The notes below the pieces were generated by a model. It worked only from the letters and a program-made list of their open reading frames with translations. It made no database searches and had not been told where the DNA came from. Positions 1-62,620 of a stretch of DNA of 62,620 bases are shown here, piece after piece. The stretch is from a virus (taxonomy: Duplodnaviria; Caudoviricetes): the IMG/VR virus record IMGVR_UViG_3300048837_000408, positions 1 through 62,620 of that record. The stretch is one strand, 5' to 3'. Position numbers and translations under genes: made by a program. The stretch's first letter is position 1. Each line of letters opens with the position of its first letter.

Positions 1-127
1 AGCCCGCTATCCTGAATACACCTGACTTGCGTGATCCACCTGATATGCAAAACGTGGCGAACAAATTAGATGGTGCTCCCGATCCTGCTCCTACGCCGAA
101 CAGTGAGCCAAAGGTAGCGGCTCCTAG
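1..127. repeat. 127-bp direct terminal overlap, copy 1 (circular assembly overlap)
   Basis: Identical to 62494-62620 and lies inside a coding frame that continues across the junction. Confidence 0.97.
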
Positions 128-3100
128 TTTACCGGAAGTGGTCAAACCCATGCAGCGGGCAACCAGTGATCTAGCTGGACAGAAGGATGGGCGGCGTTTG
201 GTAGCTGATCTGCGGGATGCGATGGGGGAGAATGGTACGATTGTTCTGAAAGAGAACGTACCTGGAAAGTATGCCGTTGCCTATGCCGATGGTAAGGTGA
301 CGATTGAATTAGATGCCAGCGTCCTGCGCCGGAAGGTATCCCAGGTACGCACCACCATGATTGATGCCATGACGGACGCGATGGCGGTGATTGATCGTGA
401 GTGGGCGGAGGGTATCCCCTTTATGGCTGGCCGGGATCTGCGGAAAGATTTGAGCGTCTTCCTTGCCAATCCGGGGCAGTTACGCCAGGAAGCCCCCCAG
501 GTGTTTGATGTTATCCAGAAACGGTTTGACAATAACACCCAGCGTAGAAACATGATGGCGGGATTGCAGGGGCGGGATCGGTTACGCTATCACCAGTTTG
601 CCAATTATGAGCGGGCGGGGATTGGGGCGGAGTTAGAGGTAGGTATTGATGAAGCCGACATCAAGCAGTATGCCCCGGAAGATTTCTATATCAACGGGGA
701 TTACCGCCGCCAGATGTCGAATAAGGTTGCGGATGCGCGGGAGAAGTACGAAGGTACAGCCATTGGTAATCATCTCTCGCGGATGCAGAACACATTGGAT
801 CGGGTGTCATCCTATCTGGATAGCTGGATGCGGATATATTATCCTGGCCCCCTCAACTTGAGGAAGGATAATCCAGCGCGGGGTGAGATGTGGGAGAAGT
901 ATTTCCAGATTAAGACCACGGTTTATCGGCGGTATGGTGAATACATGGAACGCAACCTGTCTCTGATTGAGGAGATGGGAGATGCTGCGCCCTTCGATCA
1001 ATCCCTTTCTCAAATCCTGAGTCAGTTAGGGTTCGGGTTCCAATTCACGAAGGATGGGAAGAAACTCAGAACGATTGCTTGGTTTGATGAGACTGGCAGA
1101 GCGGAGCGCAAGATCAGTGTAGCGTTCTACGCGAAGGATGCCTTCCTTCAGCAGTTCTTTGGTAAGAATGTAGTCAACATGGAGAACCTGCGGGATCTGG
1201 TTATGTCGGCTCCCTACCGGGGAGTGGATACTGTCTGGAATCCAAAGCAGTTCGAACGGGTAGCGGAGGAGATCACTGAGGATGTGGTCGGGGAAGTAGC
1301 CGAAGATGTGATGAAGGTCGCCCCCATCAAATTAGATGACGCCCAACGTCAGGTAGTCAAGGATAAGTTGGGGTTTGAGTTAGATGAAACCGGCACGATG
1401 AAACTAGAGGATCGAAGGCAAAATACCTTATTGCGGAATGCTCTCAATAAGGCTATGAGGGGTGAAACTCTGGCCGCTGATGAGGCAATGGAGCTAGGAA
1501 AGTTGGCCGCACAGTCCTCCACTACTGGGCTGAGAAATAAGGCTTACTACTGGTTGATCCATCATGGCTCGGAGTTTGCGCGTCCCACCAAGACCATGAT
1601 TGATGTGGACTATTTGAAGTTCTTCAATGATTTCGGCGGTCATCCGCAGGGAGATGTGATCCTTCAGACGTTTGCCAATGATCTGAAAGATATTGTGGGG
1701 AATGAGCATGTGTTCCATCTCTCGGGGGATGAGTTCTTTGCTGATTTTGATACGCCAGAACAGGCCGAAGAAATCATGCAACAGGTGTATAATAAATTTA
1801 GAGAACACGATTTTATTTTCAGGGAGGTAATAGATGGCAAGCCAACCGGACAAGAAATTGTCGCCAAAGGTGACTTCAAATGGGGAACAGCCGCAGATGA
1901 GTTCGAAGCCGATCAAAAGCTCATCGCCAAAAAAGCAGCAGATAGAAAGATTCGAGGGGCGGAGCCTTCGGGAATTAGCCGAAGAACTGCATCAGCGGGG
2001 GTGGAAGGAATACCAAGTGGAACTCCTCCCGCCGCAGGGAGAAAGTACGTCCCTCTAACGGATGAGGATTGGGCAAAGATTACTGAGGTGGTAACGACTG
2101 TTGATCCCGTTCAGACTGCCCGGAATACTTACAGTCAGAACATCACCAAGATCAAAGACCCCCAGGCGGTTGCGCTTATTCAAGCCGAAGCCCAGGAGAT
2201 GATGGATGACATCTTCGACCTGGATGTTTGGGATGGGCGACCATTGGGGGATGAGGACTTCGTTGAGTACATTGGTAAGACGGAGTGGGGTGCTGATCTG
2301 GTGGAAGTCCTGAAGAAACAGAAGAACCCCCGCACCGCTTTGATCGAAGCCTTTGAACAGGTCATCAGCGGGAAGGGATCAGCCTCGAACCTGACCAAAA
2401 ATCTACGCCAGCAGATCGTCAAGAACTTAGAGACTGGATTGGGAAACCGTCCTGCTCATCCTTATATGCGGAAGCTATTAGGTCTACCAGAGGATGAGGC
2501 TATTGCTAAGAGTTGGTCGGATCTGGGGCGTAACCCGATGCGGGAACTGGAACAGATGGTGGATACTCGCCAGAACGAACAGGCGTTGTGGGATGCCTTC
2601 TCACAGCAGGAATGGTACGATGGTCGCAGTCTGAAATCTGCCTGGGGAAACAACGCTCGTAACCCGGAAGTGTTCGCCGCCCACCTGCGGGATTTGATCA
2701 AGAACCTGCCCGATGGGGTACAGGATAGCAGCATAGAAGCATTACAGATGTTGTTGTTCCAGGTACAGAACTACAAGGCTTTGCGGAATAACTTCAATGG
2801 ATTATTTGGCACGCGCCGATCCTGGCGGTTGGGGAAGAACAGCCACGTGCCTCTGTCTAAGACAATTGGCTCCATGCCGGACAACTATCAGCAGTGGTTC
2901 CTCAATGCGGAGGAAGCCGCGCAAACCGTAGATGGGATAGATGCTGGGCTGCGGAAGTGGAAAGACTATGCTAAGAATAAGCCTGACCTGGGATTACAAG
3001 AAGCGGATCTGGATGCGCTGGAAGTAAGTGCGGAGGAGATCGCCCGCCTGAAACAATCCCTGTTGAATATGGCAGCGTTTGGTCCCGATGAAAAGAATCT

Positions 3101-6005
3101 GGAAACCCTGCTACGTGATTCGTTTGGTTGGGTGACACGCCAGAAGGATAACGTATGGCAGCGCCGGGTGGGGAACGAGTGGCAGAACCTTTCTAAGAAA
3201 GAGATGGGGATGTTTCAGCGGGTACAGAATGTATTGACCGAACAGGCCAATATCTTGAAGGGGGCCGGGGATGTAGAGGGTGCGTTACAGCGCACCAATC
3301 GGTTTATGATCGACTACGGTGACTTCTCTCGTCTGGATGAGATGATGCGCTACGTGGTCCCCTTCTGGAAATTCACCTCACGATCCTTCCCCTTCTGGAT
3401 TGAGACACTGGCGACTCATCCGCAAATCCTGGCAGCGTATGGGAAGTATATCAACTTCACGCGCCGGGTACAGATGCAAGAAGGTATTCGAACATCGACC
3501 GGCGAACAGATGCCATCCCTGGAAGGCTACCTGCCTATCCCTGGAACCGATATGTGGTTCAATCCATTGGCTCCCTTGTCCTTCCGCTATGTGATCCCCA
3601 AGTATCGAAACTATGGGGATGAGAACGAGAATATGCCGATCATGGGGCAGGTGTTCAACTGGCTACAGGATTACTCTCAGGTATTCGGGGTGGGTTTGAA
3701 CCCCATGTTTGTGGCTCCCTGGAAGATCATGGGACACCTGGATAATAAGCCTACCTCCGCTTTGGTTCCGCAGATCAATCTCATGCCGCCGTGGTATTTG
3801 AACAGTATTCGCGGGTACGTCAATAAGATCGGTGGGCCGGTGGCGCAGGATGCGGCTGAGGTGATCCTGGGATCGGAACTTCCTTGGATGGATTACATGG
3901 TGGAGCGTAGACTGCTTGCCAATCTCTCGGAGGAAATTCGCCGTGATCCTGCCCGCGCTACGGAACTGGTAGCCAAGATGGAACTGGCGATCCGAGAACG
4001 GGAAGGCAGCGAACTGTGGAATGAAACCCGCCGTGAGATGGAGAACTCGGATCTGGCCCGCAACTGGGCAGGATACTTTACGGCCATGTATGCCAAAGAG
4101 TTCACCGATGCTGAGGTGGATTTCCAACACCTGCGGGATGATTTGAATTTCCACCGTTCGATGGTCAACGACCAGATTGGGGCAGAGGTGTTCGGGTTAG
4201 ATCCAGATGTGGTCAACCGTTATGAGCACTACACCCACACAGCCTATGAAACTCCCGAAGGTGCACAGGTCAACTTGTACAATAACCTGCGTTGGGTACA
4301 GTCTCCAACCGGGGAGGAACTCCAGGGGCAGGAGCGCAGGGACGCAGTGGTCGCCAAGTTGGATCAACAGGAAGTGACCGCCAAGTACCACGAAGCTCTT
4401 GAACATAACTACGAATGGTATCAGTCCCAATTGAAAGCCTTACCTGTGGGAGCCGACAGCAAGTTACGTCAGAAACTCTACCAACAGTTCATCCAATACC
4501 GGGATGAGATCGAGGGCAGCGAATTATACGATACGGCTACGCGGGGATGGGCGATGGGATACAAGCCCGAGGAACTGGTGTACGAACACTTCCAGTCCTT
4601 GTGGTGGCAGATCGTGGAGGAAACCAAGCCGCAGTATGATGGGGAGGACTATAACGCTTATCAGTTACAGGTGGCCCAGTGGACTTCCGATCTACCCTAC
4701 ATTGCTACCACACTGGCATCCGCCGCTGGTCTGAACCAAATGCTGACCACCCAACTCAAGGTGGAAGAACTGCCTGAAGGTATGCCGATGGCAGGTGGGC
4801 GGGAACTCAACGTCCAGAACCTAGTCCAGAAACTTATCGCGGAGACTACCCCGGAACTGTACGAACAGTGGTCAAAGGGGAAGGATACCCCCATGCGGGC
4901 GATGGATAAGGCGTGGCAGGAACTCTACTGGAATAAGTATTGGGATACCATGCGGGATCTGTCCGGGTACGAGCGTGAACTGGTTGAACAGAACTTCATC
5001 CTCAACTTCCCCAAACCTTCTACCGAGATGATGGTGAACTGGGTGATGCAGAACTATCCAGGACAGTTCGATCCCAAGATGCTACAGGATGCGGTGCAGG
5101 ATCGTAAAGTGGAAAGTGTCGCTTCTCGCCTTGCCCCCAAAGATCCACAAGCCACAATGGAGCAGGATGTGTGGGATACTCTCAGCATGGCGGGGCCGAA
5201 CAAGGATGCGTTACAGAAAGCCTACGAACAGATGGGCGGCTACTGGGCATCGGACATCTCCGGTTTATGGTACGGGTCGGGGGGTAGTTCCTCCGCTTGG
5301 TCTGATCCTGAGAAGTTCCAGATGTTCCATGATCGCCTGATGGAAGCTGCTGCCAGTCTGGGATTGCAAGAGCCAGATGCCTTGACCTTGAAGGAATGGG
5401 CGCAAGCACAAGACCTGGACGCCAAACGTAAGGCTTTCCTTGATGAGAAGTTAGGCGCGGATTACATGGATAATATGCGGGCGTACTGGGCAGCGGATAA
5501 GCGCACCCGTTATGAGATGCGAAAGGCCGACCCAACCATTGACGAATACTACCGTATCCAGGATGGGTGGGAAGAACAGTACCCCATCTGGGCGAAGTAT
5601 TACACCGAACAGGAAAGCACCAGCACGAAGACTTCTACTGGTTCCGGCGGGGGTGGGGGAGGATACACACGCCGTTCCTATAGCAGCGGAGGTGGTAGTG
5701 GATCATCATACGTCCCGGCATCCTACACACTGGGGATGGGGGCACGCTCCACGCTGGATGCCTCTCGCCTACCGGGATCATTGGGGAAAGCCAAGCCGGG
5801 AGGTTCGATCCGTATCCCTGCTGCCCTGCAAGGCATCATTGGGGAAGCGGCTACAGCGGAGATTGAAAGCGGGGAACCCATCTCGCAAAAGACCCAGGAC
5901 TTCCTGAAGAAAGTAGAGAAGCGCCACCCTGAGCATAAAGAGATTATCCGAACCATCATTGGGGGAAAGCCAGTCTCGGGGAATGTCCTAAAAGAAATGC
6001 AGTAA
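1..6005 (+). CDS. C-terminal two-thirds of a ~3,100-aa internal virion/DNA-ejection protein with an embedded GGDEF domain (gene starts at 59196)
   Basis: 1992-aa ORF in frame with the open frame from ATG 59196 once the overlap is removed; motif FMIDYGDFSRLDEMMRYVVPFWKF resembles large podovirus ejection proteins; GGDEF motifs at about 1510-1960. Confidence 0.8.
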   Translation, partial: PAILNTPDLRDPPDMQNVANKLDGAPDPAPTPNSEPKVAAPSLPEVVKPMQRATSDLAGQKDGRRLVADLRDAMGENGTIVLKENVPGKYAVAYADGKVTIELDASVLRRKVSQVRTTMIDAMTDAMAVIDREWAEGIPFMAGRDLRKDLSVFLANPGQLRQEAPQVFDVIQKRFDNNTQRRNMMAGLQGRDRLRYHQFANYERAGIGAELEVGIDEADIKQYAPEDFYINGDYRRQMSNKVADAREKYEGTAIGNHLSRMQNTLDRVSSYLDSWMRIYYPGPLNLRKDNPARGEMWEKYFQIKTTVYRRYGEYMERNLSLIEEMGDAAPFDQSLSQILSQLGFGFQFTKDGKKLRTIAWFDETGRAERKISVAFYAKDAFLQQFFGKNVVNMENLRDLVMSAPYRGVDTVWNPKQFERVAEEITEDVVGEVAEDVMKVAPIKLDDAQRQVVKDKLGFELDETGTMKLEDRRQNTLLRNALNKAMRGETLAADEAMELGKLAAQSSTTGLRNKAYYWLIHHGSEFARPTKTMIDVDYLKFFNDFGGHPQGDVILQTFANDLKDIVGNEHVFHLSGDEFFADFDTPEQAEEIMQQVYNKFREHDFIFREVIDGKPTGQEIVAKGDFKWGTAADEFEADQKLIAKKAADRKIRGAEPSGISRRTASAGVEGIPSGTPPAAGRKYVPLTDEDWAKITEVVTTVDPVQTARNTYSQNITKIKDPQAVALIQAEAQEMMDDIFDLDVWDGRPLGDEDFVEYIGKTEWGADLVEVLKKQKNPRTALIEAFEQVISGKGSASNLTKNLRQQIVKNLETGLGNRPAHPYMRKLLGLPEDEAIAKSWSDLGRNPMRELEQMVDTRQNEQALWDAFSQQEWYDGRSLKSAWGNNARNPEVFAAHLRDLIKNLPDGVQDSSIEALQMLLFQVQNYKALRNNFNGLFGTRRSWRLGKNSHVPLSKTIGSMPDNYQQWFLNAEEAAQTVDGIDAGLRKWKDYAKNKPDLGLQEADLDALEVSAEEIARLKQSLLNMAAFGPDEKNLETLLRDSFGWVTRQKDNVWQRRVGNEWQNLSKKEMGMFQRVQNVLTEQANILKGAGDVEGALQRTNRFMIDYGDFSRLDEMMRYVVPFWKFTSRSFPFWIETLATHPQILAAYGKYINFTRRVQMQEGIRTSTGEQMPSLEGYLPIPGTDMWFNPLAPLSFRYVIPKYRNYGDENENMPIMGQVFNWLQDYSQVFGVGLNPMFVAPWKIMGHLDNKPTSALVPQINLMPPWYLNSIRGYVNKIGGPVAQDAAEVILGSELPWMDYMVERRLLANLSEEIRRDPARATELVAKMELAIREREGSELWNETRREMENSDLARNWAGYFTAMYAKEFTDAEVDFQHLRDDLNFHRSMVNDQIGAEVFGLDPDVVNRYEHYTHTAYETPEGAQVNLYNNLRWVQSPTGEELQGQERRDAVVAKLDQQEVTAKYHEALEHNYEWYQSQLKALPVGADSKLRQKLYQQFIQYRDEIEGSELYDTATRGWAMGYKPEELVYEHFQSLWWQIVEETKPQYDGEDYNAYQLQVAQWTSDLPYIATTLASAAGLNQMLTTQLKVEELPEGMPMAGGRELNVQNLVQKLIAETTPELYEQWSKGKDTPMRAMDKAWQELYWNKYWDTMRDLSGYERELVEQNFILNFPKPSTEMMVNWVMQNYPGQFDPKMLQDAVQDRKVESVASRLAPKDPQATMEQDVWDTLSMAGPNKDALQKAYEQMGGYWASDISGLWYGSGGSSSAWSDPEKFQMFHDRLMEAAASLGLQEPDALTLKEWAQAQDLDAKRKAFLDEKLGADYMDNMRAYWAADKRTRYEMRKADPTIDEYYRIQDGWEEQYPIWAKYYTEQESTSTKTSTGSGGGGGGYTRRSYSSGGGSGSSYVPASYTLGMGARSTLDASRLPGSLGKAKPGGSIRIPAALQGIIGEAATAEIESGEPISQKTQDFLKKVEKRHPEHKEIIRTIIGGKPVSGNVLKEMQ

Positions 6006-6948: not shown

Positions 6949-7932
6949 ATGGCTAACGCAAATCAGACTACGATGGCTGACAGCATCAAGACTCAGTACG
7001 AGTCCCGCCTGTTGGCACGTGCGGTTCCTCGGTTCATTCATGGCAAGTGGGGTGAAGTTGCCCGCTTGTCAAAGTTCGGTTCCTACGAAGTTCGCCGTTA
7101 TAGCTCGATGGCGAACGTGACTTCCGCCCTCACTGAAGGGCAGACCCCCGGTGAGGCTACGCAGCCCACCATCACCAAACTCACCTTGACCCCGGCTCTG
7201 TACGGTTCATGGCTCGCATGGTCTGATGAGGTTGAGTGGACCGCTATGGACCCCATCCTGTCGGAATACACCGGCATCATGGGCGAGCAAGCTGGCTCCA
7301 GTATGGACGCGATTGTACGTGATGCGCTTCATACCGGTGCGACTGTGGACTATGCTGGTACTGCTACGCAGCGTAACGATGTTGATACGACCAACGATCT
7401 CCTGGATTACACCGCTTTCATTCGCGGCGTGGTTGTGCTGGAAAATGCCAATGCGCTGCCCGCTGAAGGCGAGATGATCCCGGTTGTGATCAGCCCCTAC
7501 GGGTTTGGTACGTTGATGAATGACGCCGACTTCGTTGACCTGTTCACCCGCGCCGATCCTGCCGCTATGCGGAATGGTTACGTGGGTAACATCCTCAACT
7601 GCCGTGTGTATGTTACCTCGAATGCGAAGACCTATGCGGGTGAAGGTGATAACTGTGACGTGCACACCGCCCTGTTCATCGGGCGTCAGTCGCACTCGTT
7701 CGCCGGTTTCGCCAATGCTCCGTTTGACTATGCCAACGGGGACAGCGGTGGGGAACGGTCGAACAACACCATGCGGGCAGTCAAGCCGGTGGAAGTCATC
7801 ATCAAGGGACTGGGCGAAACTGGTCTGGATCCCCTCAACCAGCGCGGAACGATTGGCTGGAAGTTGTCGCACACGCAGCAGGTTCTCAACAGCGCGTGGT
7901 TGCTCTCAATGGAACACGCGAGTATATTCTAG
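6949..7932 (+). CDS. Major capsid protein, N4-gp56-like family
   Basis: 327 aa; LTEGQTP, YGSW, and DPLNQRGTIGWK C-terminal signature; GGAGG RBS. Confidence 0.92.
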   Translation: MANANQTTMADSIKTQYESRLLARAVPRFIHGKWGEVARLSKFGSYEVRRYSSMANVTSALTEGQTPGEATQPTITKLTLTPALYGSWLAWSDEVEWTAMDPILSEYTGIMGEQAGSSMDAIVRDALHTGATVDYAGTATQRNDVDTTNDLLDYTAFIRGVVVLENANALPAEGEMIPVVISPYGFGTLMNDADFVDLFTRADPAAMRNGYVGNILNCRVYVTSNAKTYAGEGDNCDVHTALFIGRQSHSFAGFANAPFDYANGDSGGERSNNTMRAVKPVEVIIKGLGETGLDPLNQRGTIGWKLSHTQQVLNSAWLLSMEHASIF

Positions 7933-19365: not shown

Positions 19366-19722
19366 ATGGATATTACGGTTTATCTTCAAGCGGCAATGCG
19401 GGGGGTTCCCCTGTTGTTCGTAGTACTGATGTTGGTGGAAGCCCTCAAACGAGTCAAAAATAAAGATGGTGAGCAGGCCGTGAATGATAACTGGCTGCTG
19501 CTGTCCAGCCTCTTGATCGGCTTGGTACTGGGGATTGGTTATATGGTCGCCAGTGACCGTCCACCTGCGGGGGATGACTGGTATCCCATCTTTGTATACT
19601 GGTTCGGCCTGTTTATCTACGGCACAGGATTGGGACTTCTCGCCAGCCTATTCTTCGATGCCCTCAAGGGGATCGTGGAGAAAGCGGTTGAGAAACTAAT
19701 CAAGGCGGGAATGACTGAATGA
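19366..19722 (+). CDS. Holin
   Basis: 118 aa, three hydrophobic segments and charged C-terminus, in the lysis cassette. Confidence 0.7.
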   Translation: MDITVYLQAAMRGVPLLFVVLMLVEALKRVKNKDGEQAVNDNWLLLSSLLIGLVLGIGYMVASDRPPAGDDWYPIFVYWFGLFIYGTGLGLLASLFFDALKGIVEKAVEKLIKAGMTE

Positions 19723-20474
19723 AAGGGGTTTTCCCCACTGACGAACACTTCCCCTTCCAGGATGATCGGGCACGTGAAGTCGCTATGCAAATCGTACAGG
19801 ATTTCCAGCCCGATCTCCTAATCACCCTGTCGGATGGAATAGATTTCTACAACATTTCCGCTTTCGATAAGAACCCAACAAGGGTGGCTACCAATCTCCA
19901 AAAGGAAATAGATGCTTGGGTCAAGGGGCAGTTGGAGTGGAGTAGTGCCGCCCCATCCGCAAAAAAGAAAGCGGTATTGGGGAACCATGAAGATCGTCTA
20001 CGGCGCTACTTGTGGCGTCATCCCGAGATCGCATCGCTGGATGAACTGAAATTTGAGAGCCTACTCAAGTTCGATAAGTTAGGGATCGAGTGGAGTGGGA
20101 ATGACTACGGATATGATGAGATCCTGCTCCACAAACGGCTGCTAGTCAAACACGGACATTTGATCCGCAATAAAAGTGCGATGTCTGGATACGCTGAACT
20201 AGAGAAGGAACGGTTTACTACATCGGTACTGACCGGACATACCCACCGTGGGGGTGTAAGTTATGTATCTACCCGTTTCGGCATTCAGGCTGCGTATGAG
20301 GGGTTCTGCCTATGTAAACTTGATCCAGAGTATACATCCAATCCAAACTGGCAGCAGGGGATAACACTATTTGAGGTGAATGATAATTGGCTTTCCGTTG
20401 AACCGATCCCCATCCATACAAACTTGTTCGGAAAGAAGCTCGCCATCTGGCGGGGGAAAGAGTACATGGCATAA
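19719..20474 (+). CDS. Calcineurin-like metallophosphoesterase
   Basis: DEH, SDGID, GNHE, HG and GHTH motifs. Confidence 0.88.
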   Translation: MKGVFPTDEHFPFQDDRAREVAMQIVQDFQPDLLITLSDGIDFYNISAFDKNPTRVATNLQKEIDAWVKGQLEWSSAAPSAKKKAVLGNHEDRLRRYLWRHPEIASLDELKFESLLKFDKLGIEWSGNDYGYDEILLHKRLLVKHGHLIRNKSAMSGYAELEKERFTTSVLTGHTHRGGVSYVSTRFGIQAAYEGFCLCKLDPEYTSNPNWQQGITLFEVNDNWLSVEPIPIHTNLFGKKLAIWRGKEYMA

Positions 20475-54247: not shown

Positions 54248-54547
54248 ATGGACCTAGAGGTCAAGAAAGAACGTGGCAAATTCTACGTGGTGGATCGGGA
54301 TGGTGGTCAGAAACTCAACAAGGGCAAACCATTCTCAACTCGCGCCCAAGCAGTGAAATATATGGAGAGTAAGATGGGTGCGGAGAAGTTGAGTGAGGGT
54401 GGGGAGATGTTGATGCCCAAGGGGGGTATGCCGGATATGTCTGCCTTGATGGGCGGGGGGATGCCTCCTATGCCTGGAATGATGGGACAGGCTCCCATGC
54501 CGGGGAAGATGGATCAGGTACGGATGAACCCGAGGGGCGCATATTGA
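54248..54547 (+). CDS. Small protein with Gly/Met/Pro-rich tail
   Basis: AGGAG RBS; lies immediately before terL. Confidence 0.55.
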   Translation: MDLEVKKERGKFYVVDRDGGQKLNKGKPFSTRAQAVKYMESKMGAEKLSEGGEMLMPKGGMPDMSALMGGGMPPMPGMMGQAPMPGKMDQVRMNPRGAY

Positions 54548-56109
54548 AATCATTCCTGCAATGGTTGGATGAGGATGGGTTTTACGTCAAGCAGGTCTGG
54601 GATATGGAGAAGAATGAATGGTCTGATGGTCCCGGTCTGTTGAAGCTATTCCCATTCCAGCGGAGAATTTTGGGTCACTGCCTGACCCCGGACGAGAATG
54701 GGAAATTACCTTATTCAACCATTGTCTATAGCACGTTGAAAAAAAGCGGCAAAACCATAATTTTGGCAGCGATCCTGGCCTGGGCGGGTGAGTGTGCCCC
54801 GGACAATTCTGAGCTTTTTAGCTGTGCGAATGATATGGAACAAGCTGCCTCCAGAGCTTATGCTGATGTTCAGTTCCATGTAGAAAAGAAACTGGGATTG
54901 ACTACAACGGCTAAGAAGGTTCGGTATGAGAATGGATCGACAACGGTAGTATTGGCAAACCAGTATTCGAGTGCGGCGGGATCACGACAATTCTTATCTA
55001 CCTTCGATGAACTGTGGGGTTACTCGTCTGAAGGCAGTCGGCGTATGTGGGCGGAATTGACGCCACCTGCCACGGTCAAGAATGCAATGCGTGTAGTGGC
55101 GACCTACGCCGGGTTTGAAACGGAAAGTATCCAATTGAAGGACTTGTATGATCTATGTTTCAAGAAAGAGGGTGGTAAGTATATCAATGGAGAAGTCGTC
55201 CCGGAGTTAGAAGATATTGTTGATATGCGGGGTGATCCAGTTTGTCGCAGAAGTGGTCGTGTGTTTATCTATTGGGATACAGAACCTCGGATGCCATGGC
55301 AGACACCTGAGTTCTATGAGCAGGAAATGTTGACCTTGCGCCCAATGGATTTCTTACGGATGCACCGCAACCGCTGGGCAAGTTCGAATGAATCCTTCAT
55401 TCCTGTGGAGATGTGGGATCGGGCGGCTAGTAGGTTGCAGGGACCATTGACCCTGTTCCGAGATGACCCTTTACGTTCCATGCCAATTTCGATTGGGGTA
55501 GACATTGGGACAAAGTATGATACGAGTGCGATGGTTGGGACCTATTACAACTCTCAGACTCGTAAGGTGGGGGTAGCCTTTCACCGGATCTGGACGCCAC
55601 TACAGGATGGGCAGATATTAGACCTTGAGCTAACGGTTGAACGCGAGTTATTGAAACTGTGGAAGGAATTCAAAATTGTTGGTATTCTGTACGATCCAAC
55701 CCAGTTCCAACGGTCAGCGGTTGCTCTCAAGAAAATGGGGATGCCGCTCATTGAAGTCCCGCAGCAGGGGTCGATTATGATTGAGATGACTCAAAATCTA
55801 TATGATCTGATGCGGTCGAATAATCTTGAAGCCTATCCATCTCCTGAGTTGCGAGATCACATTCAGTACGCTACGGCAGAGCATACATCGCGTGGTTATC
55901 GCTTGAAGAAGAATGAGAACGCCAAGTATCCGATTGATGCGGCTCAGGCATTGGCGATGGCGGCGTATGATTCAGTCAACAGGGGAGGGGTGGATACTTC
56001 GATCCCCATCTTTATTCAAAGTCCATTCTCAGATGATAATGGTTCGACTCGTATTCCAACCATTTGGGATGAGATCAATGCGAAATTACCGGAGGCGTTG
56101 AGATCCTGA
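54544..56109 (+). CDS. terL: Terminase large subunit
   Basis: LFPFQ, KKSGKT Walker A, FDELW Walker B, IGVDIG, YDP.Q, IDAAQALAMA. Confidence 0.92.
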   Translation: MKSFLQWLDEDGFYVKQVWDMEKNEWSDGPGLLKLFPFQRRILGHCLTPDENGKLPYSTIVYSTLKKSGKTIILAAILAWAGECAPDNSELFSCANDMEQAASRAYADVQFHVEKKLGLTTTAKKVRYENGSTTVVLANQYSSAAGSRQFLSTFDELWGYSSEGSRRMWAELTPPATVKNAMRVVATYAGFETESIQLKDLYDLCFKKEGGKYINGEVVPELEDIVDMRGDPVCRRSGRVFIYWDTEPRMPWQTPEFYEQEMLTLRPMDFLRMHRNRWASSNESFIPVEMWDRAASRLQGPLTLFRDDPLRSMPISIGVDIGTKYDTSAMVGTYYNSQTRKVGVAFHRIWTPLQDGQILDLELTVERELLKLWKEFKIVGILYDPTQFQRSAVALKKMGMPLIEVPQQGSIMIEMTQNLYDLMRSNNLEAYPSPELRDHIQYATAEHTSRGYRLKKNENAKYPIDAAQALAMAAYDSVNRGGVDTSIPIFIQSPFSDDNGSTRIPTIWDEINAKLPEALRS

Positions 56110-59195: not shown

Positions 59196-62100
59196 ATGGC
59201 ATCCAAAGTCTTAGAGAATTTATTCAAGAAACCGAATCTCATTCAACGGGCATTGAAGCCGGGTCAGTCTGTCACCCCGAAGTTTTGGGAACAGGCGGAT
59301 TTTTATGACACCCTCAATCAATCCCGTCAGGATCGGGGCGATCCGCCTGTGTATGAGCCACAGGTCAAGATGGGGGATCGGTTGTTCTATGATCCCACCT
59401 TCAAGTCTGTCACCACGCGCTCATCTGGTCAGCCCCTCTTTTGGGATCAGTCAACCAATCAATATTCTTTGAAATCAACGGGCGTACCTGCCGTATATAA
59501 GGGTGAAACCAATTATCAGATTGGGGATCAGCCCGCCACGTTCACCAAGAACCAACCCACTGTCTCGAAGGAAGTCAAGGCGGGGGATAAGTTATATTAC
59601 AATCCGCAGGTAGGAGAGATTACCAATGTCGCAACTCAATACCCGGTCTATGAAAGAGTCGGTAAAGACGGCGTTTCAGAATGGTCGCTCGAAGGGGACC
59701 AGCAGGCCCTCTACCGGAACATTGTCGAAAAGAAAGAGGAGCCGGATGCGGTCTACACGCCGGGGCTGACAGGTGCGCCTACCCCACAGACCGTAGATAA
59801 GTATGGTAGTGCAGGGTTGAATTATTTCAAGACCGTCTGGAATCCGCGCAATGGATTGTGGCAGAACGCTGTCGATAACTTTGAACTGAGTACCGAGAAA
59901 CTAAAGCGGATGGGGTTCTATCTCAGCGAGGGATCGAATGCCACGATGGGGTTCCTATCTGGGGTAGCACAGGGTCCGGGGTTGGATCTGGCGCGGGGGA
60001 TCTGGTCAGGGTTGGCGGGTGTTGGACAGTGGTTGGGCACGAAGGGAGCCATCAAGATTGGCTCAGGTAATTTGAGTGAGGAACAGCAGAACCTTTTGGC
60101 TGCTCAGGGTGTCGCTGGCATCCAGGCCATGACGCCGGGGAAACGGGCAGCTTTGATTGAGTTGGAGAAAGTGAAGCGGTTACAGAACCCCGATTCAATG
60201 TCAGGTGGGGATGAGGCTCTGGTTCCCGTCAAGAAAGGAACGACTGATCGGATCGCTAACCGGGACTTACGAGAGTCCCTGGACTCTGATTCGGTGGAGT
60301 GGTTGGATCAGGCCGACTATCGCAGGGAGCGAATGGAGAACACCTTCGATCAGTCCCGCCAGTATTTTGAGAGTTTTGGGAAACAGATTTCGGGAGAACA
60401 GGAAGACCGGACTGTGACTCTGGCGCGTCAGTATGGGATTGCCATTCCTGAAGGTAAGTCGTACATGGAGCGTAGGCAAGTCCCCATCGAACTGCGCCAG
60501 AAACTTTATGAGAAGTCGCAGGAAATTCGAGGGCGGGCTTATCAAGAGGTGGGAACCAATCCTGTACAGGCAATTGAATCCCTGAAGGAGTCCATTCAGT
60601 TGGAGCGATCTGCGGGGGGTAAGTCGGGGGTATTTGATCCCTACTTTGCCTTCACCTGGGTATCCAACCCGGATGCGGAAGATAAGTACCTGTCTTCAGT
60701 AGCGCAGATGGAACTCACCTTGGGACGCCCCCTGTCTCGTTACGAGATGTGGAAAGCGCGGGATGCCTTTGTCGATCCTTGGCAAGAGGGGATAGGTGAA
60801 ACCATTTTCGACTTCACCAATCTTATTTCTTTGCCAGTTATTGATGACATCATCCCGGCTGTGTTCAAGGGTATCAAGACGATGGGAGCCAAGACCTTGA
60901 ATGGGATTATCAAGGCTCCGGTGGTGGGACAGTTCGTGGAGTATATCGGGGGACGGGCTGTACGCTCACAGGCTACTCGCTACGCCTCGGATATGACCGA
61001 CATTTTGATGGGGGTAGCAGAGTCCACCCGCAACCGCTCGGGTAATCGTTTTGAATTATTCCAGGGTAACCTTGAGAAGATTGGTAAGGCAATTGAATCC
61101 GGTCTACCTGCGGAGGTCAACATCGTTCGTGAGCTAGGCTTACCCTCCACTATTGCCGGTCGCCAGGAACGGGTATTGTTGGGGTTATCGAACGCTTTTG
61201 AAGGTACACTGAAGGTGGCAGATAATCAGGTGGAATTGAAGGATGCCATTCGTAAGGGCTTACGTCCGGGTGAGTGGACGATGCTGGCGGATGACGCCCG
61301 TAAGGAACTCCGGGGTAAGTTCTATAAAGTGGAACGCCCGAAGATCGAAAAGAATTTCCAGTTACCGGATCGGGATGTCAAGTGGCAGCAGTTCTATGAT
61401 GCTCAATTAGCCAAGACCAATGATGTGGATGCCCGCTTCTTTGCAGATGAGGAAATCCGTAAGCTGGAGGAAGCCGGGATTGAGAAGGCGGCTGGAGATG
61501 CAGCCGACAAATTGGTGGAACGCAATCTGGAACAGATCGTGCCTATTATGTCCTCGCGGTTCCGGGAAGGCTACCTTCAGGTCAATCGACCTGTGAAGCA
61601 ATCCTTACTCGGGAAGATGGCTGATAGTTTTCTGAGCACCTGGACAAAGTTTGTACTATCCGCCCGTCCCGCCTGGGTGGTGAATAACTACCTGGATAAC
61701 TCATTTCGCTATCTGGTTCATGGGGGTAATCCATTCCAGGTGATTGATGTGCTGCGGGCGGACACCATTCAGAAGTTATTGAGTGAGGGATTGCTACCTT
61801 CTCGTATGATGTACACCTTTGCTCGGGCAGAACTGGAGCGGGGCGGAGAGACAGTGGTACAGGTGTTGGCGCGGGGTGGGTCGTTTGGTAAAACCAGTAC
61901 GGCCCTGGACTTCTTTACTCACGCTGCCGAACAGTCTATTGAGAAGCGTTCGCAAGAACTGGATAAGTTATTGATTGAGAAGCCAGCCGGTGCGATCACC
62001 AATTTCCTGCGCCGGATCAAGAGTGGGGCGGGAGTATTCTCAGACAGCTTGACAGATGGTGTTTCGGACTGGAACGCGGCGATTGAGGCAGCATTTAGCG

Positions 62101-62620
62101 TGCGGATGTTTGATGATACCTTCCAGAAGAATATGACCAAGTTGAATGGATGGGGGCGAGGTCAGCTAGAGGAAATGCTACGGGTGAAGGGGGCATCGGA
62201 TAGCGCGGTACGATTTGCTCTACAAAGTTGGGATGCTCTTGCTACCAATCCCGATCAGTTACGCGCTATGCTGAAGTCTATGCGGGCGGGTAGCGGGGAT
62301 GTGATTGGTTATATGATCCCATCCCGCGAACTGTCAGAGGCAATGGAAGGTGTGACGCCTGAACTGCGCGATCAGTTCATCTCGGATGTGTCGGATAAAT
62401 TGCTACGGGCGATGGAGAACTCCCGCCTGAACAATGAAGTCTTTGAGCCTGGGAAGTTCTTTGACGATCTGATCAAGGACTTTGACGGCAAGAAGCCCGC
62501 TATCCTGAATACACCTGACTTGCGTGATCCACCTGATATGCAAAACGTGGCGAACAAATTAGATGGTGCTCCCGATCCTGCTCCTACGCCGAACAGTGAG
62601 CCAAAGGTAGCGGCTCCTAG
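59196..62620 (+). CDS. N-terminal third of the giant internal virion protein (continues to 6005)
   Basis: ATG 59196 (MASKVLENLF) opens a frame with no stop that I could find up to the window end; contains WTKFVLSARPAWVVNN; missed by the ORF track. Confidence 0.85.
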   Translation, partial: MASKVLENLFKKPNLIQRALKPGQSVTPKFWEQADFYDTLNQSRQDRGDPPVYEPQVKMGDRLFYDPTFKSVTTRSSGQPLFWDQSTNQYSLKSTGVPAVYKGETNYQIGDQPATFTKNQPTVSKEVKAGDKLYYNPQVGEITNVATQYPVYERVGKDGVSEWSLEGDQQALYRNIVEKKEEPDAVYTPGLTGAPTPQTVDKYGSAGLNYFKTVWNPRNGLWQNAVDNFELSTEKLKRMGFYLSEGSNATMGFLSGVAQGPGLDLARGIWSGLAGVGQWLGTKGAIKIGSGNLSEEQQNLLAAQGVAGIQAMTPGKRAALIELEKVKRLQNPDSMSGGDEALVPVKKGTTDRIANRDLRESLDSDSVEWLDQADYRRERMENTFDQSRQYFESFGKQISGEQEDRTVTLARQYGIAIPEGKSYMERRQVPIELRQKLYEKSQEIRGRAYQEVGTNPVQAIESLKESIQLERSAGGKSGVFDPYFAFTWVSNPDAEDKYLSSVAQMELTLGRPLSRYEMWKARDAFVDPWQEGIGETIFDFTNLISLPVIDDIIPAVFKGIKTMGAKTLNGIIKAPVVGQFVEYIGGRAVRSQATRYASDMTDILMGVAESTRNRSGNRFELFQGNLEKIGKAIESGLPAEVNIVRELGLPSTIAGRQERVLLGLSNAFEGTLKVADNQVELKDAIRKGLRPGEWTMLADDARKELRGKFYKVERPKIEKNFQLPDRDVKWQQFYDAQLAKTNDVDARFFADEEIRKLEEAGIEKAAGDAADKLVERNLEQIVPIMSSRFREGYLQVNRPVKQSLLGKMADSFLSTWTKFVLSARPAWVVNNYLDNSFRYLVHGGNPFQVIDVLRADTIQKLLSEGLLPSRMMYTFARAELERGGETVVQVLARGGSFGKTSTALDFFTHAAEQSIEKRSQELDKLLIEKPAGAITNFLRRIKSGAGVFSDSLTDGVSDWNAAIEAAFSVRMFDDTFQKNMTKLNGWGRGQLEEMLRVKGASDSAVRFALQSWDALATNPDQLRAMLKSMRAGSGDVIGYMIPSRELSEAMEGVTPELRDQFISDVSDKLLRAMENSRLNNEVFEPGKFFDDLIKDFDGKKPAILNTPDLRDPPDMQNVANKLDGAPDPAPTPNSEPKVAAP
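62494..62620. repeat. 127-bp direct terminal overlap, copy 2
   Basis: Identical to 1-127. Confidence 0.97.

Follow-up and report, generated by a model that had tools for sequence, protein, structure and literature searches.

A GGDEF domain in an exchangeable cassette of a cysteine-free giant phage protein, a candidate cyclase for delivery with the DNA

Can a phage bring a second-messenger synthase into its host as a ready-made protein? The question is raised by a giant gene in the IMG/VR virus record IMGVR_UViG_3300048837_000408 (Duplodnaviria; Caudoviricetes), a stretch of 62,620 nucleotides that we analysed over its full length and refer to as the window. An earlier note, made from the sequence alone, had pointed to a GGDEF diguanylate cyclase domain inside the 3100-residue product of this gene. 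From sequence and predicted structure, the segment is best explained as a GGDEF nucleotide cyclase that is competent for catalysis. As to its use, we favour, with a probability of roughly 0.55, a particle-delivered and feedback-free diguanylate cyclase that acts at entry, from an exchangeable cassette in a cysteine-free giant protein. If this holds, the phage would import a second-messenger synthase as a protein, which would act before defence or phage genes respond.

The GGDEF domain of the giant protein

The record is a complete, circularly permuted phage genome of 62,493 base pairs once a terminal repeat of 127 bases is removed (62494-62620 duplicates 1-127). The giant gene wraps around the record ends. 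With the repeat removed and the sequence rotated, it reads on the circle as a single open reading frame (ORF) of 3100 codons, from an ATG at 59196 on the plus strand to a stop at 6005. The record is cut inside this gene, so that automatic gene calls give a product of 1986 residues only (P0003), and the N-terminal part of 1141 codons shows up as a separate, open-ended ORF. The parts of the gene that are discussed below are as follows.

59196-62620, plus strand: N-terminal part of the giant gene, 1141 codons, open-ended at the record end; no Pfam, PHROG or PDB match
3-6005, plus strand: C-terminal 2000 codons of the giant gene, stop included at 6005
1248-2054, plus strand: variable cassette (giant residues ~1516-1784) of head linker, helical stalk, GGDEF domain and tail linker, from the alignment with relatives, borders within about 10 residues on either side
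1422-1511, plus strand: helix-turn-helix stalk (giant residues 1574-1603), predicted homodimer interface, from two-copy folding
1512-1967, plus strand: GGDEF domain (giant residues ~1604-1755), from Pfam, PDB sequence search, structural model and Foldseek
1722-1736, plus strand: SGDEF active-site turn with His-Leu directly before it (clade signature H-x-S-G-D-E-F)

The four motifs from which the earlier note had read a GGDEF domain lie where it had placed them, all in the frame of the giant gene: TTGLRN at 1521-1538, MIDVDYLKFFNDFGGHPQGD at 1596-1655, FHLSGDEF at 1713-1736 with SGDEF at 1722-1736, and EADQKLIAKK at 1905-1934. The two checks that the note had proposed for the identity of the domain, a search with the PF00990 hidden Markov model and a structure prediction, both point to the GGDEF family. 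PF00990 matches the 155-residue segment with 40.0 bits (E 4.2e-10, cut-off 23.8), the 2000-residue piece with 34.7 bits and the six-frame translated genome with 39 bits, and this domain is its sole match in the whole 62.6-kb genome. Six PHROG families of unknown function also match the domain stretch, the best being phrog_5594 (E 9e-13). In the PDB, 27 entries match the sequence at E ≤ 0.01, and a GGDEF domain is present in 27/27; these entries are diguanylate cyclases, GGDEF proteins and one ammonium transporter, the last over a short stretch.

The AlphaFold2 model of the domain, computed with a 34-row alignment, has a predicted local distance difference test (pLDDT) score of 92.8 and a predicted template-modelling (pTM) score of 0.88. 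Strands and helices follow each other in the expected order, with S-G-D-E-F on a hairpin between two strands. At the top of the Foldseek matches in the PDB stand GGDEF domains only, with few exceptions from diguanylate cyclases (DgcR, PleD, SadC, DgcZ, WspR), with template-modelling (TM) scores by query of 0.58-0.67, E-values down to 4e-9 and a probability of 1.00, at 14-25% sequence identity to the solved structures. A Cas10/mCpol-type or polymerase palm was considered as well and was rejected, because every sequence and fold match is a GGDEF domain.

To count residues at the active site, we searched the 200-residue region against 1.84 billion representative proteins, which gave 3476 matches at E ≤ 0.001 (22 at E ≤ 1e-10 and two at E ≤ 1e-30). 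From the best 150 of the 3476, the 103 proteins that align at least 120 domain residues were kept, and together with the query they make up 104 rows. The residues that bind metal and guanosine triphosphate (GTP) had been claimed to be retained, and they are conserved both in the query and in this alignment. The first Asp of D-x-D (D38, A1 numbering) is found in 104/104 rows and D40 in 99/104; the Asn of x-N-D (N46) is likewise invariant (104/104), and the Asp of G-H-x-x-G-D (D55) is present in 97/104. All 104 rows have the second Gly of the signature motif, followed by the acidic pair D80 (95 Asp and 8 Glu) and E81 (103/104). In the last helix, a Lys is found in 104/104 rows and an Arg four residues on in 87/104, with a further R-G in 85/104; a conserved C-terminal R-G-x-x-P-x-G tail is specific to the clade. 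We take the conserved Asp to bind metal, the Asn and Asp to bind guanine and the Lys to bind phosphate, as in PleD, and the last-helix Lys and Arg are likened to the phosphate-binding pair of PleD from the alignment alone. The domains of the giant relatives P0005-P0008, described below, are 40-41% identical to the query and keep all active-site residues.

Two further details had been predicted, and both stand. There is no RxxD inhibitory site (I-site): E-H-V-F precedes the motif in the window, and no Arg/Asp pattern is seen in those columns across the clade. The Asp of G-H-x-x-G-D, which had been taken to favour cyclic di-GMP (c-di-GMP) over cyclic GMP-AMP (cGAMP), is kept. In GGDEF enzymes that make cGAMP, a Ser is reported to replace the Asp of x-x-G-D (PMC13725321); the query keeps this Asp, and is thus without the Ser of the cGAMP makers.

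The domain is predicted to dimerise. Two copies of a 227-residue segment (window 1335-2015), which covers the stalk and the domain, were folded together without an alignment, and the homodimer has an interface score (ipSAE) of 0.57, against 0.00 for the best of three controls. The mark applied to this score is reached by 21/30 proteins solved as same-chain pairs and by 0/23 single chains. Contact agreement between the dimer runs is at least 84%, and the partner pLDDT is 77. The interface consists of segment residues 30-59 on the stalk helices, with a few more at 62-75, where the domain starts. These models support a homodimer that would form through the helical stalk ahead of the domain.

The cassette, its scaffold and its clade

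Seven full-length giant relatives, of 2567-3477 residues, were found in other metagenomes by a word-index search. The family alignment has conserved flanks and a variable centre, in which the relatives differ as follows.

P0004, 2860 residues, 66% identity: a linker of ~23 residues in place of the ~270-residue cassette; no PF00990 match
P0007, 3137 residues, 45% identity: cassette kept, then an empty second slot
P0005 and P0006, 3477 and 3472 residues, 44-45% identity: cassette and a second module
P0008, 3473 residues, 44% identity: cassette and a different second module
P0009 and P0010, 3162 and 2567 residues, 28-29% identity: no GGDEF domain

Recurring linker motifs flank every module of the variable centre, of the type L-G-[IF]-x-L-x-x-x-G-T-x-K-L at the head and V-x-L-[ST]-x-x-E-x-A-x-I at the tail; in the window they lie at approximately 1365-1400 and 2040-2090, respectively. 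Judged by their sequences, the linker-bracketed modules look like a cassette-exchange system within the protein. The cassette is missing in the closest relative and present in remoter ones, and in P0005-P0008 the domain has diverged about as far as the rest of the protein (40-41% versus 41-42% identity); on these grounds, loss in the P0004 line would be the simplest history, and the cassette appears to be dispensable for the scaffold. The G+C content of the cassette is 48.5%, against 52.4-52.5% in its flanks and 53.5% in the rest of the gene, which agrees weakly with acquisition from elsewhere.

For the second modules of P0005, P0006 and P0008, Pfam scans of the whole proteins give GGDEF only, and whole-protein phmmer searches against the collected loci give no match in those regions. 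Labels given by eye (ART-like in P0005 and P0006, HExxH-like in P0008) are unverified impressions and are not used as evidence. In the second slot of P0007 the head and tail motifs abut, with almost nothing between them.

The scaffold itself can be followed further than the cassette, through its best-conserved part.

3276-3842, plus strand: best-conserved scaffold core (P0002 residues 1092-1280; motifs PFW... and GY(L/V/I)P(I/V)PGTD), common to 26 IMG/VR loci; no known fold

These 26 loci were found by a search with the family alignment, which was needed because a single-protein query against the IMG/VR viral contigs gave no scaffold loci. Their ORFs have 563-4126 residues, and 8/26 are cut at the 5' end. 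A GGDEF profile from our own alignment finds the domain in 0/26 of these remote relatives, with the 8 ORFs that are cut at the 5' end included in that count. The two longest carry other cargos: one has ART-PolyVal (PF18760, 149.6 bits) with DUF3990, and the other a Strawberry-notch-type helicase (ResIII/AAA_34/Helicase_C_4). Both cargos are located upstream of the conserved core, on the same side as the GGDEF cassette of the window. The earlier note had asked whether other enzymes take this place in related phages, and the linker in P0004, the second modules and the ART-PolyVal or helicase domains indicate that such exchange occurs. Comparison of the sequences gives good support to the GGDEF domain being an accessory, exchangeable cargo cassette. 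As for the core, the single trace of LPD38 is a label on 10% of one Atlas cluster, and an AlphaFold2 model computed with a 17-row alignment (pLDDT 54.9, pTM 0.34) is too poor for a fold search.

The domain belongs to a clade with a signature of its own. H-x-S-G-D-E-F is found in 69/103 close domain relatives, in host proteins with a median length of 1875 residues (range 178-5484), and the canonical R-x-G-G in 20/103, in host proteins with a median of 778 residues. Six top domain matches were scanned, of which three have polyvalent-type domains (LPD1 and LPD5 in one, ART-PolyVal in another, LPD5 in the third). Two peptide patterns locate the domain in 64 IMG/VR loci, among which five pairs are near-duplicates. 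In 64/64 the domain lies in a long ORF, with a median length of at least 2272 residues and a maximum of at least 5995; 24/64 of the ORFs are cut by the locus ends. Pfam domains in 20 complete clade ORFs are GGDEF (20), InPase (7), ART-PolyVal (5), LPD22 (5), LPD38 (2) and RadC (2), and a Strawberry-notch-type helicase, ddrB-ParB and GNAT occur in one each. The giant of the window and one such clade protein have the GGDEF domain alone in common, and the cassette has accordingly moved between unrelated scaffolds. Among PLSDB plasmids there is no match to the domain at E ≤ 1e-6 (tblastn).

A frequent partner of the domain in this clade is a pyrophosphatase, InPase. A local profile finds InPase in 16/64 GGDEF-bearing ORFs, and 4/4 of those checked are PF18823, with 143-175 bits. 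In 10/16 the InPase domain lies within 100 residues of GGDEF, on either side: just after it in L030, L043, L052, L058, L061 and L063, and just before it in L037, L041, L045 and L051. InPase occurs in 0/26 giants without GGDEF and in no other ORF of the 64 loci, a contrast that is rough, as the sample was chosen for GGDEF. Because a pyrophosphatase is expected beside an enzyme that releases pyrophosphate (PPi), the fusion supports turnover in the clade, and not directly in the protein of the window.

Delivery, proposed mechanism and rival explanations

The giant gene lies among genes of the packaging machinery and the head.

54544-56109, plus strand: large terminase subunit (TerL); phrog_9, E 5e-37; PF20441 TerL_nuclease, 28 bits
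56109-57965, plus strand: portal-like protein, 618 residues, from Atlas structural clusters
6949-7932, plus strand: major capsid protein; phrog_1357, E 1.7e-43; PF25209, 32.5 bits

The order, all on the plus strand, is TerL, portal-like protein, a 340-residue ORF, the giant, a 259-residue ORF and the major capsid protein. The portal-like protein has no Pfam, PHROG or PDB sequence match; its assignment is based on an Atlas model with a TM score of 0.68 to a cluster labelled 76% P22_portal and 59% SU10_portal, and on feature scores of 0.94-0.97 to Atlas clusters with portal families. We also scanned the clade loci with Pfam for a portal or terminase family in the nearest upstream ORF of at least 380 residues, after dropping the five near-duplicates and loci with too little upstream DNA. 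The result, 0/48, is uninformative, since the portal-like protein of the window is itself without a Pfam match.

The giant protein avoids cysteine. It has 0 cysteines in 3100 residues, versus 146 in 13,548 (1.08%) in 45 other ORFs of the phage (P ~3e-15), which, with the gene order from TerL to capsid, upholds the description of the giant as a cysteine-free protein in the portal-capsid block. All seven giant relatives, down to 28% identity, have 0 cysteines as well, and in the 26 remote scaffold relatives the count is 0-3 per protein. The 64 unrelated GGDEF giants contain 63 cysteines in 161,102 residues (0.039%), and 39/64 have none, including one of at least 5995 residues. In other ORFs of at least 200 residues on the same strand of the same loci the share is 0.94%, so that cysteine is depleted ~24-fold in the GGDEF giants. 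No transmembrane-like segment is evident in the giant of the window (best 19-residue Kyte-Doolittle mean 1.28). Cysteine avoidance would suit storage outside the cell and threading of the unfolded chain through a narrow channel and the periplasm, and from gene position and composition we infer that the giant travels in the capsid and is injected along with the DNA. A literature search at the level of listings gave no account of ejected phage proteins being poor in cysteine. A low cysteine content could serve to pick out injected phage proteins from metagenomic data.

We hypothesize that the capsid takes up the giant protein, that the protein is threaded into the host together with the DNA, and that two cassettes would pair through the helical stalk. 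The pair would condense two GTP to c-di-GMP, with no feedback inhibition and before phage gene expression. The outcome would be a sudden rise of c-di-GMP in the host, a drain of GTP, or both, which may reprogramme the surface, motility or nucleotide-based signalling in favour of the phage. The locus is a clean test object for this proposal, as it offers a cassette of ~230 residues with a predicted dimer stalk, an empty site in P0004 and relatives with add-on modules. It also reaches wider than one phage, given a distinct clade of GGDEF domains in giant ORFs, the frequent pyrophosphatase fusion and the ~24-fold depletion of cysteine. We speculate, with more doubt than confidence, that the H-x-S-G-D-E-F clade as a whole consists of phage-specific, particle-delivered and feedback-free cyclases, often helped by a pyrophosphatase, and that near-absence of cysteine is a general signature of virion-threaded proteins. 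If this were true, the clade would flood the cell with c-di-GMP or drain its GTP within seconds of DNA entry, and its cyclases would be the first case of a second-messenger synthase demonstrated to work as an effector that a phage injects.

Several observations weigh against delivery of an active cyclase. The PF00990 alignment covers profile positions 37-109 only, the central 73 of 161. The first Gly of the signature motif is a Ser in the query and in 72/104 rows, and the Arg at position -2 of the motif is a His in the query and in 79/104, with Arg in 24. The protein of the window is without InPase, so that the coupling argument leans on other proteins. The dimer result may reflect likeness to the solved coiled-coil GGDEF dimers 6ttr and 3i5c, which are both among the fold matches. 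P0004 lacks the cassette, and a phage of this type can therefore manage without it. Ejection-protein-like motifs had been described on both sides of the domain; this part of the earlier reading was not confirmed, as Pfam, PHROG and PDB sequence searches give no known family outside GGDEF and leave the scaffold without a counterpart among known virion, ejection or LPD families. A tblastn search of cultured phages with the scaffold core gives nothing at E ≤ 1e-5, the genome contains no transfer RNA gene and hence no clue to the host of that kind, and a scan of 185,579 reference genomes with the family alignment gives one scaffold-core locus, which is uninformative on the host. Among cultured phages, the domain has its nearest relatives (32% identity over 77% of the domain, E 1e-8 to 2e-7) in Yuavirus of Pseudomonas, where the related domain is a solo gene among small non-structural genes and not a virion protein; belonging to the clade therefore does not in itself imply delivery by the particle.

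The Yuavirus genes also bear on where the enzyme would act. It might be an active cyclase that is not delivered by the particle, and is instead made late and remains cytoplasmic, where it would alter the envelope, motility or nucleotide pools, or exclude superinfection; the giant would then be unpackaged, or packaged incidentally. We consider this unlikely, although it is the alternative that we take most seriously. The solo GGDEF-like genes show phage use of the domain from within the cell, packaging of the giant is deduced from gene position and composition alone, and its scaffold has no match to known virion proteins. However, a cytoplasmic enzyme needs no carrier of 3100 residues, no avoidance of cysteine and no placement between portal and capsid genes, and the scaffold relatives carry ART-PolyVal or helicase domains, which are described among the domains of injected polyvalent proteins (PMC5512222).

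Delivery of a diguanylate cyclase also presupposes that the domain is active and that its product is c-di-GMP. The Ser and His substitutions and the R-G-x-x-P-x-G tail of the clade depart from the canonical enzymes, and would fit an active nucleotidyltransferase with another product, such as linear pppGpG or a mixed or other cyclic oligonucleotide, or with GTP consumption as its effect; it may jam nucleotide-based immunity, present it with a decoy, or serve as a sink for GTP. GGDEF-type enzymes that make cGAMP are known (PMC13725321), mCpol is reported to make decoy cyclic nucleotides in the Panoptes system (PMC12657218), a product-inhibition site is lacking, and the frequent InPase next to GGDEF would fit any reaction that releases PPi. 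We nevertheless find another product improbable, as the guanine-reading Asn and Asp are kept (104/104 and 97/104), the Ser of the cGAMP makers is absent, and every one of the nearest solved folds is a GGDEF domain, with few exceptions from a diguanylate cyclase. Moreover, tested SGDEF enzymes make c-di-GMP: Pectobacterium ECA3270 is reported to be active (PMC3974145), as is Vibrio cholerae MbaA in vivo (PMC8079147), and A/SGDEF motifs are listed among experimentally verified cyclases (PMC13725321). A Gly-to-Ser change in the cyclase VCA0965 abolished activity (PMC3974145), so that tolerance of Ser is context-dependent. The short PF00990 alignment, and the report that many degenerate GGDEF domains are non-catalytic (PMC3974145), would also allow a domain that binds GTP or c-di-GMP as a sensor, or that serves the folding or spacing of the giant. 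This seems to us very unlikely: the catalytic positions are conserved across a clade that has diverged to ~30% identity, the c-di-GMP-binding I-site of sensor-type domains is absent, the association with pyrophosphatase points to turnover, and a structural role agrees poorly with a cassette that the scaffold of P0004 does without.

Known systems and the remaining genome

The arrangement of the giant, if not its scaffold, has a precedent. Iyer et al. (2017) described polyvalent proteins as giant multidomain proteins of phages and conjugative elements that are predicted to be injected with the DNA (PMC5512222). Among their nucleotide-metabolism domains GGDEF is mentioned as 'while not very widespread', with a prophage protein of Acetonema longum as an example (WP_004096050.1, with GGDEF, SWI2/SNF2, MTase, zincin and ART), and the cyclase is proposed there to interfere with host responses that use similar nucleotides (PMC5512222). 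Like these proteins, the giant of the window is encoded by an ORF beside portal and terminase genes and has GGDEF as interchangeable cargo, and its clade relatives carry LPD1, LPD5, LPD22, LPD38, ART-PolyVal, InPase and ddrB-ParB, domains named in that paper. Unlike them, it has one recognisable enzymatic domain only, and is without an anchor or LPD domain (MuF, LPD1-40 etc.) at Pfam thresholds. We file it as an added member, on a new scaffold, of this described class. It is not categorically new, since GGDEF as polyvalent cargo, injection and nucleotide interference have been in print since 2017. Compared with the wording 'not very widespread' in that source, two peptide patterns found 64 IMG/VR loci here. 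Cysteine is not mentioned in the main text of PMC5512222, and the clade-wide pyrophosphatase fusion and cysteine avoidance are additions to the published picture that we consider worth following up.

With PleD, WspR, DgcR and DgcZ the domain shares the fold, the metal Asp, the guanine Asn and Asp, the G-[DE]-E-F turn and the C-terminal Lys, and with coiled-coil cyclases a helical stalk before the domain that is predicted to dimerise. In contrast to canonical cyclases, the cassette has neither a sensory or receiver domain nor an RxxD I-site, and the canonical R-x-G-G-[DE]-E-F is replaced by H-x-S-G-D-E-F, in a shorter domain with the R-G-x-x-P-x-G tail and in a phage host protein of 3100 residues. 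ECA3270 and MbaA share the Ser of the motif; unlike the giant, both are cellular, membrane-bound signalling proteins.

Giant enzymes that are delivered from the capsid with the DNA and act ahead of phage gene expression include the virion RNA polymerase (vRNAP) of phage N4 (~3500 residues) and DarB of phage P1 (PMC5512222), and a virion-packaged giant enzyme delivered with the DNA is described for an N4-like phage (PMC11445570). For N4 vRNAP and P1 DarB packaging was shown experimentally, whereas for the giant of the window it is deduced. The giant has no sequence similarity to N4 vRNAP or DarB; apart from its GGDEF domain, neither the PDB nor Pfam gives a match to it.

One of the Yuavirus relatives, Churro_042 (OL763419.1, L092 8866-9336), has 156 residues and is annotated as 'putative diguanylate-cyclase GGDEF-like protein'. 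Its gene directly precedes a putative antirestriction gene. A literature search at the level of listings found no functional study of the Yuavirus GGDEF-like protein, and in one at the level of listings and abstracts no phage GGDEF cargo domain turned up that had been put to a bench test. Churro_042 would be an easy bench model for the function of phage GGDEF domains.

The phage is probably short-tailed, since its capsid protein is Pagevirus-like, at ~30% identity to the major head proteins of these Bacillus podophages, and no tape-measure-like or sheath gene is evident among the ORFs downstream of the capsid gene. The genome is without a close cultured relative, and megablast of the giant gene against cultured phages gives no match. 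The sole reference-genome locus with the scaffold core is CAYPUO010000001.1, a sequence of 43,776 bases in a metagenome-assembled genome (MAG) labelled 'uncultured archaeon'; to judge from its length and content, it appears to be a phage contig that was binned into the MAG.

Within the giant gene, an opposite-strand ORF of 140 codons (1494-1916) lies wholly inside the coding sequence and was treated as spurious. Near the C-terminus of the giant, at ~5640-5700, a Gly/Ser-rich tract consists of runs of 6-7 Gly followed by Y-x-R-R. The tract is kept in all eight family members, with invariant Gly columns, and may act as a flexible hinge or mark a site of processing. Elsewhere in the genome, a metallophosphoesterase gene (19719-20474; phrog_221, E 1.3e-36) follows an endolysin-like gene and closes the late block.

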